A stretch of DNA of 64,000 nucleotides, taken from NCBI GenBank assembly GCA_963785725.1, contig CAWAWS010000003.1:96001-160000 (forward strand). The letters are read 5' to 3'. Made by a program: the position numbers. Source of the DNA: an uncultured delta proteobacterium. GTDB taxonomy: Bacteria > Myxococcota_A > Polyangia > Palsa-1104. Positions 24,801-33,800 of the stretch are shown here, in pieces (positions within the stretch are counted from its first letter, which is position 1; every line of letters starts with the position of its first letter).

Positions 24801-27800
24801 CGCCGCCGGCGGCGACGACGCCGCCACCGCCGGGGACGACGACGATGACACCGACGACACCGACAGCGCCGCCGATGACGACGACACCGCCGCCGCCACC
24901 GCCGACGGCGACCCGCAGCGTCGTCGCGTCAACGCCGGCGCCGTCGTCCAAGCCGCCCGTCGACAAGCCGCAGGCGCGGCTGCGCGTCACAGGGACGGCG
25001 GGCGCCGAGATCCTCGTCGACGGAGCGCTCGTCGGACACGTGCCCGCCGCGCTGCGGCTGCCCGGCGATGCCGCGAAGCACGAGCTGATGGTGCGACGGC
25101 CCGGCTTCGTGCGCATGACGCGCACCATCGCGCTCGCGAGCGACTCGCCGCTCGACATCGACGCGCAGCTGCAACGCATGCCGCCCGCGCCGTCGCGCCA
25201 CGCGGCGCCGTCTCCGCCGCGCAAGCCGAAGGTCGACGCGCTCAAGCCGGTCGATCCCTTCGCCGAGTAGACATGACGGGTGAGCGATCATCGCGCATGT
25301 CGGTGAGACGTCTCCTCGTTGACGAAAGTGCGCGTTCCTTGATACGGTCGATAAAGGGAAATCGTGTGAACCGAGTCGGAGTCAGGTGCCTCGCGCTGCT
25401 GTTTGCGCTCGCGCTAATACCCTCGGCTGCACATGCCGAGGGGCGTGACGAGGCGCGCATTTTGTACAAGCGCGGCCAGGATCACTTCAATCACGGTCAG
25501 TTCAAATCGGCGTTCGAGGAGTTCAGCCAATGCTACGCGCTGAGCCCGCGTCCGCTCCTCCTCTACGACATGGGGTTGACGGCATTGCGGCTGGAGAAGT
25601 ACGACACCGCGCTCGATCTATTGCGCCGCTTTTTGTCGACGATGGACAAGCCCACGCCCGAGCGCAACACGGCCGAGGCGCTGGTGGCCCGGCTGCAAGC
25701 GAGCGGTTCGCGCGGCGATCCGGGCACGCCGACGCCGCCGCTGTCCGAGCCGGCCAGCCCGACGGCCGTCAGCCCGACGCCGGCCAGCCCGACGCCGGCC
25801 AGCCCGACGGCCGTCAGCTCGACGCCGGCCAGCCCGACGCCGACGCCGGTCGTGGACGGAGCGTTGACTGCGACGGCGGCGAGCCCGTCATTGACCGCGC
25901 CGCCGACGCTGACGCAGCAGGCGGCGCCGCCGCCGCGACGGCGCGGGCTCATCTTGGGGCTGAGCATCGGCGCGGCGGCCGTCGTGGTCGGCGCAGTCGC
26001 GATCGGCATCGTGTTCGGCACCGAGCGCGGCCCGACGACGACGATCGGCAGCGGGCACCTGCAGTGAGAGCGCTCATCGTCCTCGCCTTGCTCGCCCAAG
26101 GCTGCCTGATCCGACCGTGCGACGACGGGACGCTGTTCATCGAGCTGACGATGAGCACCGCCGCGACGCACGCCGACCAGCTGCAGTTCGACGCGACCTA
26201 CGGCGGGCAGCACTCGCAAGCGCTGGTGCGCTACACGTCCGGCGCGACGACGGGCACCGTCCAGCTCGACTTCCCGCACGGCTATCCGCGCGGACTCGAG
26301 CTCGCGCTCACGGTCACGGCGCTGCAAGGCGCGAGCATCCTCGCGACCGGATCGACGTCGGCGAGGCTGAGCGGCAGCTGCGCGCGCATCTCGGTCGCGC
26401 TCGCCGACGTGACCGCGAACGGCCCCGATGGTGGCAACGGTGGCGATCTCGCCGCCGCGGCCGACGCCGCAGTCGACGCTGCGGTCGACGACGGCGCCAC
26501 CGACCTGGCGCCGCCGCTGCGGTCGCTCGACGGCAGCGTCGGGGCGCCGCTCCCCGTCGCCACGAGCCTGTCGCCCGCGTCGGTGATCGTCGGCGCAGGC
26601 GCGACCAAGCTGACGGTGACCGGCTCGGGCTTCGTGGCGACGTCGCAGATCACCTTCAACAACACGGCGGCGACGACGACCTTCGTGGACGCGAGCCACG
26701 TCAGCGCGACGCTCACCTCGGCGCAGCTGGCCACGATCGCCACCATCCAGGTGCGCGTCGTGACCCCGGCGCCGGGCGGCGGCACGTCGGCCGCCCTGCC
26801 GTTCGCGGTCAGCTGCCAGCCGATCACGAGCGGCCTGCTCGCCCACTGGACGATGGACACCTCCTCGATCAGCGGCACCACGCTGGCCGACAGCTCGGGC
26901 AACCACAACGACGGCACGCTCAGCGGCTTTACGGCGCCGGTGACGGTCACGGGCGAGCTCGGCCAGGCGCTGTCGTATCCCGCGTCGGGCAGCGCGCACG
27001 TCGCCGTTCCCTCGATCGCGCTCGATCTGACGGCGGGACATACGAACAGCTTTTCCTTCTGGTTCTATCGCGCGGCCGGCTCGGTCAACGACGTGCTGTT
27101 CTTGCTGCCGTCGCCCTACGGTTCGCGATACGACCTGTGGCTGACGGGGAGCGCCGGCCAGTTCCTCTGCTTCAACAGCGGAAACAACGATTGCTTCGGC
27201 GTTCAGAACAACAACCTCATCGGTCGCTGGGTCCACGTCGTGGCCCTCTTCGGCAACGGCTCGACGGCGACCTCCAACCTCTACATCGACGGCGTGCAGT
27301 ACACGCCGTCATGCCTCACCGGCAGCGGATTCGAGCCCTGCCAGAGCAGCACCGCCGGGCTGCCGGTCAGCCTCGGCGGCGACACCGACTTCTACTTCCA
27401 CGGGCTGTTCGACGAAGTCCGCGTCTACGACCGCGCCTTGACGGCGAGCGAAGTGACGACGTTGTACAGCGGCAACGTCTGCCCGTAGCGCTGCGCCGAA
27501 TGGCGACCTCATGAGAAGTATGGGCGGAGAGCGGCGGTCACGATCCGCACGCAAAAGCGCGCACCGGTTTCGAGCCGGGCTCGGGGCCATCCCCAATTCA
27601 CTCTCCGGAAGTTGCCCGCGAGAACCGGCGGGCGCGGCTGTTACGACGTGAAGCTCAGCCCTTTACGCACAAGAGCTGCTTGAGCTCGGCCACGATCTCG
27701 ACCAGATCGCGCTGATTGGCCATGACCTGATCGATCGCCTTATAGGCGCCGGGGATCTCGTCGATGACGCCGTGATCCTTGCGGCACTCCACTCCCGCCG

Positions 27801-30800: not shown

Positions 30801-33800
30801 CGCGAAGTCGCCGCGCTTGGCGGCCATCGCCAGCGCGAAGATCGCCGGATCGTTCTTGGGCGCCCGGCCGGCGTCGCTGACGGCGACGATCTGCGCGACG
30901 GTGCGCGCGCCGTCGCCGTCGATGCAGCGGGCGACCGCCTCGGCGTTCTCCCGCGTCAACGCCGGCTCCTTGGCGTAATAGCTGCCGCCCTCGGTGCCGA
31001 GAATCAGGAAGCGGTCGAGCCGCGTCCAGTCGTCGACGGCCCAGGCGAAGCCGCCGCCGGAGTTGGCGACCTGCGTCGAGCCCGGAATGGGCTGCGACTG
31101 CGGCGTCTGGTTGAGCGAGAACAGCTTTCCATAGTTGATACCCACGGCTCACCTCCTTACGGCCCGCTCCATACGGGCGATTCAGGTTGGTACGGAGCCA
31201 GGGAATCGAACCCTGCGCAGCGAGTTTGTAGGACTCGTATCACCCCCAGGTGAGCTGCTCCGCATGAAATGCAATGCAATGACGTGCTCCCGGCAGGAGT
31301 CGAACCTGCAATGTCCGGTTTAGAAGACCGGCGCCCATTCCATTGGGCTTCGAGAGCGATTGGACGCAAACAAGCAGTGCTCCCGGCAGGAGTCGAACCT
31401 GCACTTCATCCTTCGCAGGGATGTGACCTATCCATTAGTGCGACGGGAGCTTGAATACATCGAGTGTCCTCGCCAGGAATCGAACCTGGAATGTCGGCTT
31501 CGGAGACCGGCGTGAGATCCATTTCACTACGAGGACGACGCTGTCACTTCAGTGAGTAGTCGTGGCGGGATTCGAACCCGCACGGTCGAAGCAAGAGATC
31601 CTCTGAGGAAACGCGCTTCCCTGCCAAAGCGTTCCCGCCCGGGCCCGGTGCATCCGTAAACCTTGGATCTCGCCGCCGTCAGGCGTCTCCGACTGCTTTC
31701 GCTATCGGTTTCCGTTTTTCCGACGCGCTCCCTTTTGCGCTACACGACCATTCGAAACGGTGGAGTCGGAGGGAGTTGAACCCTCGTCTCTGCGATGCGA
31801 GCGCAGCGTGTTCCCGTTATTCACCACGACCCCTTGCTACAGCGGCGAGACACGACGAGCAGTGTTGAAAGACCGAGCGCGTCCTGCATAGGTCGTCATT
31901 CGGCGTTTCATTCAGCTGCGCCCCAGCGAGGAGTCGAACCTCGTTCTCCGGTGCTTCAGACCAGCGCGTAGACCGCATACGCTACCGGGGCGTGGCGCCT
32001 GCGACGGGAGTTGAACCCGTAACACTCGATGGACAGTCGAGCCGCCGGCCGTTGGCGTTCGCAGGCAAAACGAAAATGAAAATGGGGTGACCCAAAAATT
32101 GCACCTCCCACTCCGTAGCTCGCCGCGGAATGAACCGCGTCGGAGTGGTCCCTCGCTCGAGGTCGGCCCGGTGCCTCTGCCGTCATTTGGTCAGCGTGGT
32201 CGGGATCGAACCGACGATCTCCTGCTCCCAAGGCAGGCGCGTTACCGCTTCGCTACACACTGATTGGCGTCCCGTGCGGGAATCGAACCCGCGTTCTCGG
32301 ATTGAAATCAGAAGGCCTGCCCATTAGTACCTCGCCACAGCAATTTCGACCGGTCTGCGCCGGTCCGCGACGCCCATGGCTTCGTTGCGACTCCTCAGAA
32401 TACAACCAGTATTCCTTCGTCCTCGCGCCTCGCCCTGGACGCCGCCTCCTCGGCGGATACCAATCAAAATCACTGTGGCGAGGTACCAGCCGAACGGGAC
32501 AGTGACGCTGGAGAGAGTCGAACCCTTCATTCCCCGACTGAGCATCGGGTGGCCTTCCGTTAGCCGACAGCGCCGAAATGGAGGTCCGCCGCGGAGTTGA
32601 ACCGCGCCACTGCCGATTTGCAGTCGGCATCACTCGCCGGAGCCGCGGACCCGAGCCGTGGCGTACCCCCAGGGAATCGAACCCTGCTTGACCCGCTTAA
32701 CAGGCGGGTGCCATCCCAGTCCGGCGCGGGGTACGAAGTATTAAGGAGACATAGATCGCGGAAGTGCGAGCTCGGGCGCGTGGAATCGAACCACGATGAC
32801 GAGATCCAAATGCTCGCGTCCTGCCATTGGACGACACCCGAATGGAGCGCGGTGCGGGAGTCGAACCCGTCCTCGCTGACTTGGAAGGCCAGGGCCCAAC
32901 CGCTAGACCAACCGCGCCGAAGATCGTGCCGCCGGCAGGAATCGAACCTGCACCCAGCCGGTTAAAAACCGGCTGCTCTGCCGCTGAGCTACGGCGGCGT
33001 TGCCGCTTTTGGTGCGCGCCGTGGGAATCGAACCCACCTTCAACGGATTAAGAATCCGTCGCCTCACCAGTCGGCTTGGCGCGCAATGGAGCTCTCTTCC
33101 GAAAGACGAGAGCTCTCTTCTCATGACGTCGCTATTCGATTATCAAAGCGGACGAAACCAATCGGTTTCGCCCATATTCGTGGGCCGCCTGGGAATCGAA
33201 CCCAGCGAGCTCCGCGGAGCGCCTGATTTACAATCAGGCCCGTCTCCATAACGGTCTAACGACCCGGGCGCAGAGCGGCCGGCGGGAATCGAACCCGCCA
33301 CTCCGACTTGGCAAGCCGGCGTGTCTCCCACGACACCTCGACCGCAGGACGCACGAATCCCCTGGCGCGCATTCGAGCGTTCGAGCCCAAATGCGCCTTT
33401 CGGGAGCGCTGGTCTGCCGATGAGCTACGCGGCCGTCAGATGCGGAGCACCGACGGACCGCACGCCGTGAGTCGATCGCGGAAACCCCAATGGTCTCCGA
33501 CGTCGACCTCGCCGTTCGCGCTCATCTGTCCGTCGTGTTTGTCCCGCATCCTCGCTCTCGCGCGCTGCGAAGGCGCGCCTGGTTCTGGTTTCGGTCGCCG
33601 AAACGGCGAAGGGCCGGGAACCTCTCGGTTCACCGGCCCTTGGGTCGATCCTGTGCTGCTAAGGATCAAACTAAGGGCCGCTATTGTCCCAATCGAGGCA
33701 CGGCTGACGACCATGGAAATTCTCCACGATTCGTCCGCACGTACGCAGACCGGCCACGGCGACGACGCGCGTCGAGCGCGTCGTGTCTTGGCCGTTCCGA

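Follow-up and report, generated by a model that had tools for sequence, protein, structure and literature searches.

Both of the systems that come closest to the locus presented here are already known, namely the L-array, a tRNA gene array with HNH, RtcB and Dps neighbours, and the Ro60-Y RNA-RtcB repair module. According to PMC8421152, translational stress in Anabaena switches on the L-array along with rtcB and dpsA, its tRNAs participate in translation, and HNH is a conserved L-array neighbour. The Ro60 systems studied in Salmonella and Deinococcus work without arrays, as far as PMC4201824 and PMC7790460 describe them, whereas the Ro60 gene of the present locus lies inside one. The array agrees with the published L-array type, whose neighbours are HNH, RtcB and Dps, and with the term "L-array" used for it in an earlier note. 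Our favoured reading, which we hold to be reasonably probable, is that of an L-type array with a built-in Ro60/Y RNA/RtcB module, belonging to a family of cassettes with an inferred role in tRNA rescue and with Ro60 as an optional component.

In the window (the whole analysed stretch of 64,000 nt, from a soil bacterium), all parts of the locus are found on the minus strand: 20 tRNA genes, Ro60/Rsr, two Y-type RNAs and RtcB. Apart from the second Y-type RNA, this anatomy is as the earlier note described it, but the note's tRNA count and its limitation of the link to Myxococcota did not hold. Default ARAGORN returns 20 tRNA genes, every one of them minus-strand, between 28966 and 33345, and the 22 reported before are the ARAGORN count for the whole contig C3, including two distant genes. 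Besides the 20, two degenerate tRNA-like elements occupy gaps of the array, at about 31557-31749 and 32265-32500. Outside both arrays of this genome there are 61 ARAGORN calls in 8.9 Mb, a density that gives a chance expectation of about 0.08 tRNAs per Ro60 within ±5 kb.

Read along the minus strand, the array opens with tRNA-Gly(GCC) at 33273-33345 (ARAGORN; Rfam, 48.7 bits) and tRNA-Tyr(GUA) at 33180-33265 (ARAGORN), which retains its long variable arm. It continues with tRNA-Lys(CUU) (33010-33084), tRNA-Lys(UUU) (32926-32998), tRNA-Gly(UCC) (32843-32917) and tRNA-Gln(UUG) (32770-32841), all four matched by ARAGORN and Rfam. The next three are ARAGORN calls: tRNA-Asn(GUU) (32659-32734), without any Rfam tRNA-clan match, tRNA-Cys(GCA) (32579-32651), with a sub-threshold Rfam tRNA-Sec match of 33 bits, and tRNA-Glu(CUC) (32502-32574), with G33 in the anticodon loop. 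In the decayed tRNA gene at 32265-32500, a palindromic repeat of some 160 bp (approximately 32327-32489; 15 matches in the genome, fold -82.7 kcal/mol) splits the D-arm; across this insert an acceptor stem of 7 bp and a T-arm can still be read, and ARAGORN at a lowered threshold makes a call at 32265-32343. Between tRNA-Pro(UGG) (32188-32262; ARAGORN, Rfam) and tRNA-Asp(GUC) (31993-32066; ARAGORN), a U-rich hairpin region at 32067-32187 could be an internal stop or restart of transcription. This tRNA-Asp carries C37 and is the sole tRNA-Asp found in the assembly. After tRNA-Phe(GAA) (31918-31991) and tRNA-Ala(CGC) (31759-31833, with G3:U70), both also matched by Rfam, lies the second degenerate element (31557-31749, lowered-threshold ARAGORN), which has an acceptor stem, a D-arm and a T-arm but, in place of the anticodon arm, roughly 130 nt of inserted sequence, and whose fold is not significant against shuffles. 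The stretch upstream of Ro60 closes with tRNA-Arg(CCG) (31464-31536), tRNA-Arg(GCG) (31377-31450) and tRNA-Arg(UCU) (31284-31357), each called by ARAGORN and Rfam, and with tRNA-Val(UAC) (31188-31263; ARAGORN), which has C33.

The end of tRNA-Val and the start of Ro60 are 42 nt apart, a gap that holds a ribosome-binding site only, and 72 nt separate the Ro60 stop from tRNA-Thr(CGU) (29350-29423), which has an atypical D-arm and an encoded CCA. The last two tRNA genes are tRNA-Trp(CCA) (29071-29146), atypical with its anticodon at position 39, and the 75-nt tRNA-Leu(CAG) without a long variable arm (28966-29040; ARAGORN, Rfam); tRNA-Thr and tRNA-Trp are ARAGORN calls with sub-threshold Rfam matches only. 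The terminator scan found no strong terminator within the unit, its sole call on the array strand being a weak one of five pairs before RtcB. The RtcB RNA ligase itself (388 aa, 27655-28821, minus strand; PF01139 425 bits, PDB RtcB E 6e-34) is where it had been placed before.

Upstream, three features on the minus strand are exclusive in this genome to its two arrays. A promoter-like site at 33844-33871 lies in a patch rich in AT and consists of TTGACT, 17 nt and a second hexamer of the TTTAGCA type; it drew no call in a consensus promoter scan. It is followed by a putative 50-codon leader ORF ending in Gly-Pro-TAG (33671-33823), whose counterpart upstream of array 2 has 49 codons and likewise ends in Gly-Pro-TAG; N-terminus and stop context are conserved between the two, with a synonymous CCT/CCC change. 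The third feature (33612-33638) is a candidate terminator or attenuator, namely a conserved hairpin, rich in GC, that has GAGA as its loop and is followed by a U-containing tail. The leader folds with a z-score of -4.6.

The Ro60/Rsr protein (549 aa, 29496-31145, minus strand) is secure as previously annotated, with TROVE and vWA_Ro60 domains, 580 bits to NCBIfam Rsr and E 3e-126 to PDB 2NVO (Rsr). The second Ro60 gene reported on C39, with five tRNAs and an HNH gene, was also found; it is 71% identical to the first and is trailed by a homologue of the tRNA-Thr(CGU) element. The Y-RNA-like match at 29251-29351 on the minus strand was recovered with 40.2 bits to Rfam Deinococcus_Y_RNA (RF01053) against a gathering score of 80. 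We delimit it as a YrlA-type Y RNA 1 at 29253-29349 (fold -58.4 kcal/mol, z -5.4; 93.5 bits to our own covariance model R1), which follows the tRNA-Thr CCA without a gap (0 nt), with a GNCGAA-N-G motif (29337-29344) in its basal helix and a tRNA-like domain with a T-arm on top. A second, YrlB-like RNA, absent from the earlier note, lies at 29137-29243 on the same strand (R1 31 bits, E 8e-4; fold z -2.8); it shares the 5′ GCUGGGUUAUC motif with Y RNA 1, and tRNA-Trp begins within its 3′ strand. Across the loci of close Ro60 relatives, our model gave 106 matches at E<1, 105 of them on the Ro60 strand, and at E<0.01 it gave 67 matches in 39 of 44 loci, five of which had been used for training. 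The resulting alignment, itself fitted to the model, has 90.4% of its cells paired (slid controls reach 36-53%), and compensatory change is seen at 14 of the 15 pairs. In related loci, Y RNAs are interleaved with tRNAs at gaps of 0-10 nt.

At least three tRNAs within 5 kb, nearly all on the Ro60 strand, accompany Ro60 at 26 of the 44 loci of close relatives: 5/5 in Myxococcota, 18/26 in Actinomycetota, 2/10 in Chloroflexota and 1/1 in Verrucomicrobiota. The layout is not specific to Myxococcota; nor is the link an exception elsewhere, as had been stated, since 21 of 39 non-Myxococcota loci of close relatives show it. Within the class, and within ±1.5 kb, 26 of 29 loci have at least two tRNAs (22 of 29 in the earlier count) and 24 have at least three. 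The cassette family, which ranges over these four phyla, consists of a tRNA array, Y RNAs and Ro60, a handful of further tRNAs and often HNH and/or RtcB; in Actinomycetota loci the order Ro60-Leu(CAG)-Arg-Cys-RtcB is conserved. Recurrence of the layout in such distant bacterial groups points to a transferable kit that would rescue a damaged tRNA pool.

How far the array tRNAs are functional bears on this reading. They are 57-71% identical to the best tRNA for the same amino acid elsewhere in the genome (48-73% had been given), and 12 of 20 pass the gathering score of the Rfam tRNA model, the other eight failing it. Among array tRNAs, 4 of 25 in this genome and 59 of 453 from related arrays (about 13-16%) have no U33, on loop calls that are ARAGORN-based and, for divergent tRNAs, may in part be off register. 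Together with a tRNA-Leu lacking the long arm and four Y RNA domains that ARAGORN reads as tRNAs, these irregularities would suit mainly non-decoding baits for tRNA-targeting nucleases or toxins, recycled by RtcB and Ro60, and a sponge of this kind has been raised for Anabaena in PMC8421152. We nevertheless regard this as quite improbable, given the high rates at which synthetase identity elements are retained: G3:U70 in 21 of 24 tRNA-Ala, C1:G72 in 33 of 46 tRNA-Pro, U73 in 16 of 18 tRNA-Cys and 40 of 40 tRNA-Thr, A73 in 28 of 28 tRNA-Val and C73 in 27 of 30 tRNA-His. Of 712 tRNAs, 645 have an acceptor stem that pairs over its full length. All 35 tRNA-Ser and all 28 tRNA-Tyr retain the long variable arm, which is lost only in tRNA-Leu (24 of 42), and in E. 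coli charging of tRNA-Leu does not need it. The retained identity elements make it probable, on sequence grounds, that the array tRNAs are chargeable, and the participation of the Anabaena array tRNAs in translation likewise speaks against baits. The array contains no tRNA gene for Ser, Ile, Met or His and therefore cannot alone replace the tRNA pool.

Two further readings concern Ro60 itself. The earlier note saw the Ro60-Y RNA particle as a dedicated quality-control partner of the supernumerary tRNAs, with the array transcripts as natural substrates; in this reading each would depend on the other. Both Ro60 genes of this genome lie within arrays, 25 of 28 genes in the Myxococcota clade of a quick Ro60 tree have at least three tRNAs within 1.5 kb, tRNAs and Y RNAs are interleaved, and several irregular array tRNAs could need surveillance. 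This reading is still unlikely in our view: a genome of the same genus (G236) has an array of 24 tRNAs, partly syntenic and with HNH, for which searches found neither Ro60 nor Y RNA, 16 of the 44 loci of close Ro60 relatives have 0-1 tRNA, as do the surroundings of more distant Ro60 genes carried by plasmids and temperate phages, and the array-free Salmonella and Deinococcus systems function. Ro60 is an optional add-on to arrays and not an obligatory partner. Alternatively, the island could be selfish or phage-derived and spread by the HNH homing endonuclease, with Ro60, Y RNAs and RtcB as cargo without any joint function with the tRNAs. Ro60 is indeed patchy (found in 35 of the 251 class genomes, where 36 of 201 had been given; 0/3 in the same genus and 1/10 in others of the family), HNH genes turn up again both in arrays that have Ro60 and in arrays that lack it, the tRNA region of large Streptomyces phages has a Ro-like gene in its middle (15 tRNAs within ±6 kb), and T4 SegB is a homing endonuclease within a tRNA cluster, as reported in PMC2330249. 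We find this unlikely, for the tight same-strand operon layout is retained in four phyla at Ro60 identities of 54-72%, two unrelated types of RtcB, and other genes for RNA repair or translation, joined by independent recruitment, no integrase or phage gene occurs within about 8 kb in the window, and GC3 (Ro60 0.92, RtcB 0.88) equals that of host genes. Genes in the quick Ro60 tree cluster largely by phylum, so this is not a single recent transfer.

Under the favoured reading of an array with a built-in rescue module, the chromosomal L-type array would count 20 intact and two decayed tRNA genes, and one promoter-like site with its leader would likely yield a single polycistronic precursor, to be cut by tRNA-processing enzymes into tRNAs, Y RNAs and two mRNAs. 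Damage to the tRNA pool or stalled translation may trigger the unit. Divergent but chargeable replacement tRNAs would then be supplied, RtcB would reseal cleaved tRNAs, and the Ro60-Y RNA particle would bind misfolded or irreparable RNA and pass it to an exonuclease. Altered anticodon loops in some array tRNAs may evade anticodon nucleases; phage tRNAs do so via loop changes, according to PMC10264068, and resistance of the tRNAs without U33 is our guess.

Partner genes vary around this core. The Dps/ferritin-like gene noted upstream is present (34332-34886; PF00210 91.8 bits, NCBIfam Dps models below cut-offs) but on the plus strand, and is therefore divergent from the array. By Pfam, the loci L017, L024, L042, L028 and L030 each have RtcB on the same strand downstream. 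Of the five loci of Myxococcota in the public contig scan, four (L001-L004) retained at least 2.4 kb downstream of Ro60 and had no RtcB relative at E<1e-10; the L003 sequence ends right after Ro60. Both RtcB types, which share about 30% identity, occur in arrays, and RtcB orthologues 79-83% identical stand alone in three of three same-genus genomes. HNH, likewise recurrent downstream, is present in L001, L003, L008, L028, L030 and L102 and at this genome's second locus. In addition, L030 has an ATP-type RNA ligase and a SUKH protein, L102 has RlaP and L005 has EF-Tu.

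In the window, which spans C3 96001-160000, the minus-strand tRNA array at 28966-33345 comprises 20 tRNA genes by ARAGORN, all on the same strand, within 4.38 kb that include the 1.65-kb Ro60 gene. The earlier note had counted 22, a figure that is the ARAGORN total for the entire contig C3 and takes in two distant genes. Its spacers are mostly of 1-35 nt. The array is a tRNA array unit as defined by Tran et al. 2015 (PMC4758250), that is, at least 20 tRNA genes at a density of at least 2 per kb. Ro60 lies inside this array and RtcB downstream of it, so the arrangement proposed in the note is borne out by domains and positions; the ferritin/Dps-like gene that it placed nearby is also there (34332-34886), oriented divergently from the array.

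The suspicion that some of the ARAGORN calls lack Rfam support was well founded: 12 of the 20 array tRNAs exceed the gathering score of the Rfam tRNA model and eight fall below it. Sub-threshold matches only were obtained to tRNA-Sec (four further array tRNAs) and to tmRNA (one), and the Val, Asp, Glu and Asn genes have no tRNA-clan match in Rfam on the minus strand. Two gaps in the array carry remnants of tRNA genes. In a decayed tRNA-like element at about 31557-31749 (minus strand), an insert of about 130 nt replaces the anticodon arm, and a decayed tRNA gene in the second gap (minus strand) retains its T-arm and an acceptor stem of 7 perfect base pairs, but a palindromic repeat of about 160 bp interrupts its D-arm. 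The gap elements at 31537-31758 and 32067-32187 fold no better than their shuffles. The array is largely supernumerary, with 17 of its 20 anticodons also present outside the arrays of this genome. Outside the arrays, in an assembly that is 88% complete, the ARAGORN calls include neither tRNA-Asp(GUC) nor Val(UAC) nor Arg(GCG). The array genes for these three could be the sole copies in the genome, but given that completeness a missing Val-Asp locus is the likelier cause.

Ro60 (29496-31145, minus strand) sits between the 17th and 18th tRNA and combines a TROVE domain, the HEAT-repeat ring (PF05731, 140.8 bits), with a C-terminal vWA_Ro60 domain (PF25045, 206.8 bits). It matches Deinococcus radiodurans Rsr (2NVO, E 3e-126) and Xenopus Ro (1YVP) over its full length. 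On the NCBIfam equivalog NF041674 it scores 579.9 bits against a curated cut-off of 900; judged by its sequence, it is a clear homologue of bacterial Ro60/Rsr, though one under that model's naming score. RtcB (27655-28821, minus strand) begins 144 nt past the last array tRNA and covers model positions 1-426 of PF01139 (425.5 bits), i.e. the full-length domain. Its closest NCBIfam model is an RtcB-related family, with a score under the cut-off of that family, and a convergent TIG/Laminin_G gene follows downstream. No RtcA adjoins RtcB, and the neighbours scanned contain neither an RTC-family match nor an RtcR or sigma-54 activator domain. The -24/-12 consensus of sigma-54 promoters has 0 matches in the locus, and elsewhere in the window 2 against 4.3 expected by chance.

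Two candidate Y RNAs, Y1 and Y2, lie 147-360 nt downstream of Ro60 on its strand. Y1 (29253-29349, minus strand, 97 nt) starts directly after the encoded CCA of tRNA-Thr(CGU). Its MFE fold, at -58.4 kcal/mol (z -5.4), has a long basal helix on which sit an acceptor-like stem and three hairpins, one hairpin being a GGUUCGAA-type T-arm. This gives Y1 a tRNA-like domain, and a tRNA-clan model matches Y1 in part (23 bits). The 5′ strand of the closing basal helix carries GNCGAAN0-1G (29337-29344), the motif described for YrlA RNA in the text of Chen et al. (PMC4201824). As in YrlA-type RNAs, Y1 lies within 4 kb of Ro60 (end at 29496) on the same strand. The Y-RNA-like match of the earlier note is reproduced as Deinococcus_Y_RNA (RF01053) at 40.2 bits, against a gathering score of 80; neither that model nor YrlA (RF02553, 16.8 bits, on the wrong strand) reaches the gathering score in Rfam. 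Matches from sequence-only nhmmer are weak (best E 0.096 for Y1 and 0.015 for Y2), so that a covariance model was needed. This model, R1, was built from Y1 and five relatives found by nhmmer.

In the window and 44 related Ro60 loci, R1 returns 106 matches at E<1; 105 share the strand of Ro60, and hardly any lies farther than about 1.4 kb from that gene. Tightening the cut to E<0.01 leaves 67 matches in 39 of the 44 loci, five of these loci having supplied training sequences. The Y1-type basal helix covaries across 105 sequences: in an alignment fitted to the model, 90.4% of cells pair, compared to 36-53% with slid partners, and 14 of the 15 base pairs have changed on both sides. R1 matches not one of the 20 tRNAs in the window. 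Y2 (29137-29243, minus strand; 31 bits, E 8e-4 with R1) has the 5′ GCUGGGUUAUC motif in common with Y1 and is devoid of the T-arm. Its 3′ strand runs into the start of tRNA-Trp; since the stretch at 29137-29146 is both the 3′ strand of the Y2 basal helix and the 5′ acceptor strand of that tRNA, the two folds compete. Taken together, Y1 and Y2 point to two Y RNAs at the locus, as in Salmonella. A run of R1 on the whole genome, in which 150 of about 9000 candidates were scored, returned only Y1, and the Y RNAs of the second locus come from a direct search there. In related loci, Y RNAs abut tRNAs by 0-10 nt. Four of the 67 matches coincide with ARAGORN tRNA calls, located just upstream of Ro60 (L027, L029, L036, L042). 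As extra tRNAs these calls break the conserved gene order, which argues that some annotated array tRNAs are really tRNA-like domains of Y RNAs. For annotation, ARAGORN takes some Y RNA domains for tRNAs, and Rfam overlooks the Y RNA clade of the window.

We infer that tRNAs, Ro60, Y RNAs and RtcB would be expressed as one transcription unit. The end of tRNA-Val and the Ro60 start codon are separated by 42 nt containing only a ribosome-binding site, and 72 nt separate the Ro60 stop from tRNA-Thr. On the array strand, the sole call of a terminator scan is a weak 5-pair site just before RtcB; transcription might stop internally at a hairpin that lies, with its U-rich tail, between tRNA-Pro and tRNA-Asp. 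Between 27300 and 34400, a scan for consensus promoters was negative. An AT-rich patch that precedes the first tRNA holds a promoter-like site of the type TTGACT, 17 nt, TTTAGCA, followed by a 50-codon ORF ending in Gly-Pro-TAG and by a GC-rich hairpin with a GAGA loop. These three elements, the ORF in each case of about 50 codons and ending in Gly-Pro-TAG, occur upstream of both arrays of this genome (33612-33871 in the window and 10551-10808 in L045 for the second array) and nowhere else in it. Such a leader could be a translation-sensing attenuator. Searches with both leaders by nhmmer against the 44 loci gave no match, in 251 class genomes searched as DNA the sole matches were GC-rich, chance-like and 30-47 nt long, and small ORFs upstream of 13 other arrays included no common Gly-Pro-stop leader. 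The attenuator idea thus draws on these two paralogous copies only.

The second Ro60 on contig C39, which the earlier note had reported with five tRNAs and an HNH gene, was found. On a single strand it shows Gly-Lys-Pro-His-Phe tRNAs, Ro60 (71% identical), a tRNA-Thr-like element, Y RNAs (47.9, 41.4 and 16.5 bits with R1) and an HNH endonuclease. The weakest of these Y RNAs carries a copy of a palindromic, MITE-like repeat of about 155-160 bp that has 15 matches in the genome. One copy, at about 32327-32489, splits an array tRNA in the window; on C39 (624237-624391 and 628046-628197), one copy lies inside a Y RNA and another upstream of the second array.

The tRNA-array link of Ro60 is stronger and wider than the earlier note had stated. 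A scan with the window's Ro60, taking one genome per species, gave the 44 loci with flanks of up to ±10 kb. In 26 of them, from several phyla, three or more tRNAs lie no farther than 5 kb from Ro60, with a maximum of 25 per locus, and nearly all of these tRNAs share its strand. By phylum, the 26 are 5/5 loci in Myxococcota, 18/26 in Actinomycetota, 2/10 in Chloroflexota, 0/2 in Armatimonadota and 1/1 in Verrucomicrobiota. The base rate outside the arrays of our genome is 61 ARAGORN tRNA calls per 8.9 Mb. Gene order is largely conserved in Actinomycetota and reads Gln-Val-Phe-Lys-Ser-Ser-Asn-Glu-Pro-Met-Asp-His-Tyr-Ala-Thr-Arg-Gly-Trp-(Y RNAs)-(Ro60)-Leu(CAG)-Arg-Cys-(RtcB). Within the class, Ro60 is present in 35 of 251 genomes, including 0/3 of the same genus and 19/34 in one family, and 24 of 29 class loci with a ±1.5 kb flank have at least three tRNAs. 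A quick Ro60 tree, with SH-aLRT support only, groups mostly by phylum and needs 6-8 changes of the array label; 25 of 28 rows in its Myxococcota clade have arrays. Searched as DNA (851 bp), the array gives a multi-tRNA match in just one of the three same-genus genomes, and class-wide mostly single housekeeping tRNAs, with the same-genus G236 as the sole informative match. Its distribution is thus patchy and non-vertical, as in L-arrays.

Is Ro60 then a dedicated partner of such arrays, as the note had proposed? The frequency of tRNAs beside it would speak for this reading, but G236 has an array without Ro60 and 16 of the 44 Ro60 loci have 0-1 tRNA nearby, so that dedication is not supported. 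In G236 a partly syntenic 24-tRNA array is accompanied by HNH, with neither Ro60 nor an R1 match; its RtcB orthologue stands alone in an unrelated context, and because only RtcB itself matches the window there, the borders of an insertion are not definable. The Ro60 genes of two plasmids, one cyanobacterial and one from Bosea, and of two temperate actinophages also have 0-1 tRNA nearby, in contrast to a large Streptomyces phage with 15 tRNAs around its Ro-like gene. The association of Ro60 with arrays is real and the partnership is optional. Among the mobile loci with few tRNAs, the Ro-like gene of the temperate Gordonia phage Cashline lies beside the integrase/immunity region, that of the temperate mycobacterial prophiT37-1 just downstream of a BrnT-like toxin gene, and the Bosea Ro60 near a GIY-YIG nuclease, peptidyl-tRNA hydrolase and SerRS. 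In all three of these loci, 0.6-2 kb upstream of Ro60 is free of annotation (L049 5550-6971, L050 5368-6013, L105 5927-7965), and these gaps may hold Y RNAs.

Partner genes vary around the arrays. HNH is on the same strand in L001, L003, L008, L028, L030, L102 and the second locus of our genome, and RtcB is downstream in L017, L024, L042, L028 and L030, there of a type about 30% identical to the window's. Genome G076 has the window type (72% identical) among 18 tRNAs with Ro60, HNH, RlaP and Y RNAs. Other genes embedded in related arrays are those for an ATP-type RNA ligase and a SUKH protein with HNH and RtcB (L030 11757-17076), a full EF-Tu paralogue (L005 7325-8590) and an RlaP nucleotidyltransferase (L102 5125-6384).

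We surveyed 712 array tRNAs, from 50 loci with at least three tRNAs and the two arrays of our genome. In 645 of them every position of the acceptor stem is paired. Identity marks, those known from E. coli work, are mostly kept, in Ala (G3:U70, 21/24), Pro (C1:G72, 33/46), Cys (U73, 16/18), Gly (U73, 39/45), Thr (U73, 40/40), Val (A73, 28/28) and His (C73, 27/30), and the long variable arm is retained in tRNA-Ser (35/35) and tRNA-Tyr (28/28). Array tRNA-Leu is class-I-like in 24 of 42 copies, shorter than 80 nt (about 75 nt) and devoid of a long variable arm, whereas all six non-array Leu calls of our genome measure at least 82 nt; the window's own copy (28966-29040) is most similar, at 71%, to an array tRNA-Arg. 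Another base, mostly C, stands in place of U33 in 4 of the 25 array tRNAs of our genome and 59 of 453 in related arrays, compared to 2 of 58 elsewhere in the genome, both doubtful calls of 95-96 nt. In the window, Val (31188-31263) has C33, Glu (32502-32574) has G33 and Asp (31993-32066) has C37, hence no purine at 37; Glu-CUC, Gly-GCC and His-GUG recur without U33 across related arrays. These features fit tRNAs that would be chargeable, with anticodon loops departing from the norm. The loop pattern recalls a proposal in the text of PMC10264068 that phage tRNAs escape anticodon nucleases. That 13-16% of array tRNAs are without U33 and many tRNA-Leu are class-I-like bears on tRNA identity and on the anticodon-nuclease arms race.

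By comparison with described systems, the locus joins two known ones, the L-array and the Ro60-Y RNA-RtcB operon; the embedding of one in the other was not found in the literature searched, and the function assigned to it is inferred. L-arrays, as presented in the text of Santamaria-Gomez et al. 2021 (PMC8421152), are long, horizontally spread tRNA gene operons with HNH, RtcB and Dps neighbours, induced by translational stress. Like them, the window has a one-strand, mostly redundant array that is patchy among relatives, with HNH, RtcB and Dps as neighbours. Unlike what that text describes, Ro60 and Y RNAs lie inside the array, here and in three other phyla. TROVE, Ro60, Rsr and Y RNA occur neither in the text nor in part of the supplement of PMC8421152, Figure 6B and the rest of the supplement lying outside this count. 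The Ro60-Y RNA-RtcB operon is established as rsr-yrlBA-rtcBA of Salmonella Typhimurium in the texts of Chen et al. 2013/2014 (PMC4201824) and Hughes et al. 2020 (PMC7790460), where it is an RNA repair operon. As in that operon, the window has Ro60/Rsr, a tRNA-like Y RNA with a second Y RNA, and RtcB on one strand. Unlike in the operon as portrayed there, RtcA, RtcR and a sigma-54 promoter match are absent, the unit includes 20 real tRNA genes, and the Y RNAs are tRNA-flanked downstream of Ro60.

The tRNAs of jumbo phages are ‘supplemented’ by RNA ligases of the RtcB or Rnl kind, a small subset having a TROVE protein as well, a combination read in the text of Iyer et al. 2021 (PMC7824862) as a counter to RNase attack; that of PMC10264068 presents cluster C1 mycobacteriophages as tRNA-rich. 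Streptomyces phage Genie2 has a Ro-like gene amid tRNAs, and the Ro of mycobacteriophage Rabinovish has only two tRNAs near it, 3 kb away. The locus likewise joins tRNAs with RtcB and a TROVE protein (cf. PMC7824862), but it is an operon of a bacterial chromosome, its neighbourhood is free of phage genes, and its kind of array is tight (spacers of 1-10 nt) where phage tRNAs are scattered among small ORFs. The tRNA array units of Mycobacterium and Acidithiobacillus (Tran et al. 2015; Morgado & Vicente 2018, PMC5966550; Yano et al. 2026, PMC12803027), for which an anti-defence role has been suggested, resemble the window in having at least 20 tRNAs at no fewer than 2 per kb that differ from housekeeping tRNAs; unlike for the window, the text of PMC12803027 has no RtcB, Ro60, TROVE or Y RNA. 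No paper joining Ro60/TROVE with bacterial tRNA arrays was found in the literature searched, which did not extend to the Annual Review on bacterial Ro60.

Tentatively, and with the balance leaning against it, we speculate that transferable tRNA-array islands have of old included Ro60 and Y RNAs as an integral module, in at least four bacterial phyla and in large actinophages. The Y RNAs would be produced as members of the array and released by the enzymes that process tRNAs, and might descend from array tRNAs; the array tRNAs, with their C33 loops and tRNA-Leu without a long arm, would be nuclease-evasive spares, and the island a self-contained kit against attack on the tRNA pool. If this island reading were true, bacterial Ro60 would gain a natural substrate class in damaged or spare tRNAs. 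The Y RNAs of bacterial Ro60 mimic tRNA, and the Salmonella operon responds to tRNA fragments. With Ro60 and Y RNAs physically joined, in a conserved way, to real tRNA arrays, Ro60 has a concrete set of candidate substrates that is testable by genetics, and the L-array concept is extended beyond cyanobacteria with a richer RNA-repair gene set. Apart from the array and unrelated to it, genes for an AMP-binding enzyme and a type III polyketide synthase lie adjacent at 36185-39985, upstream of the Dps and GDT1-family genes.
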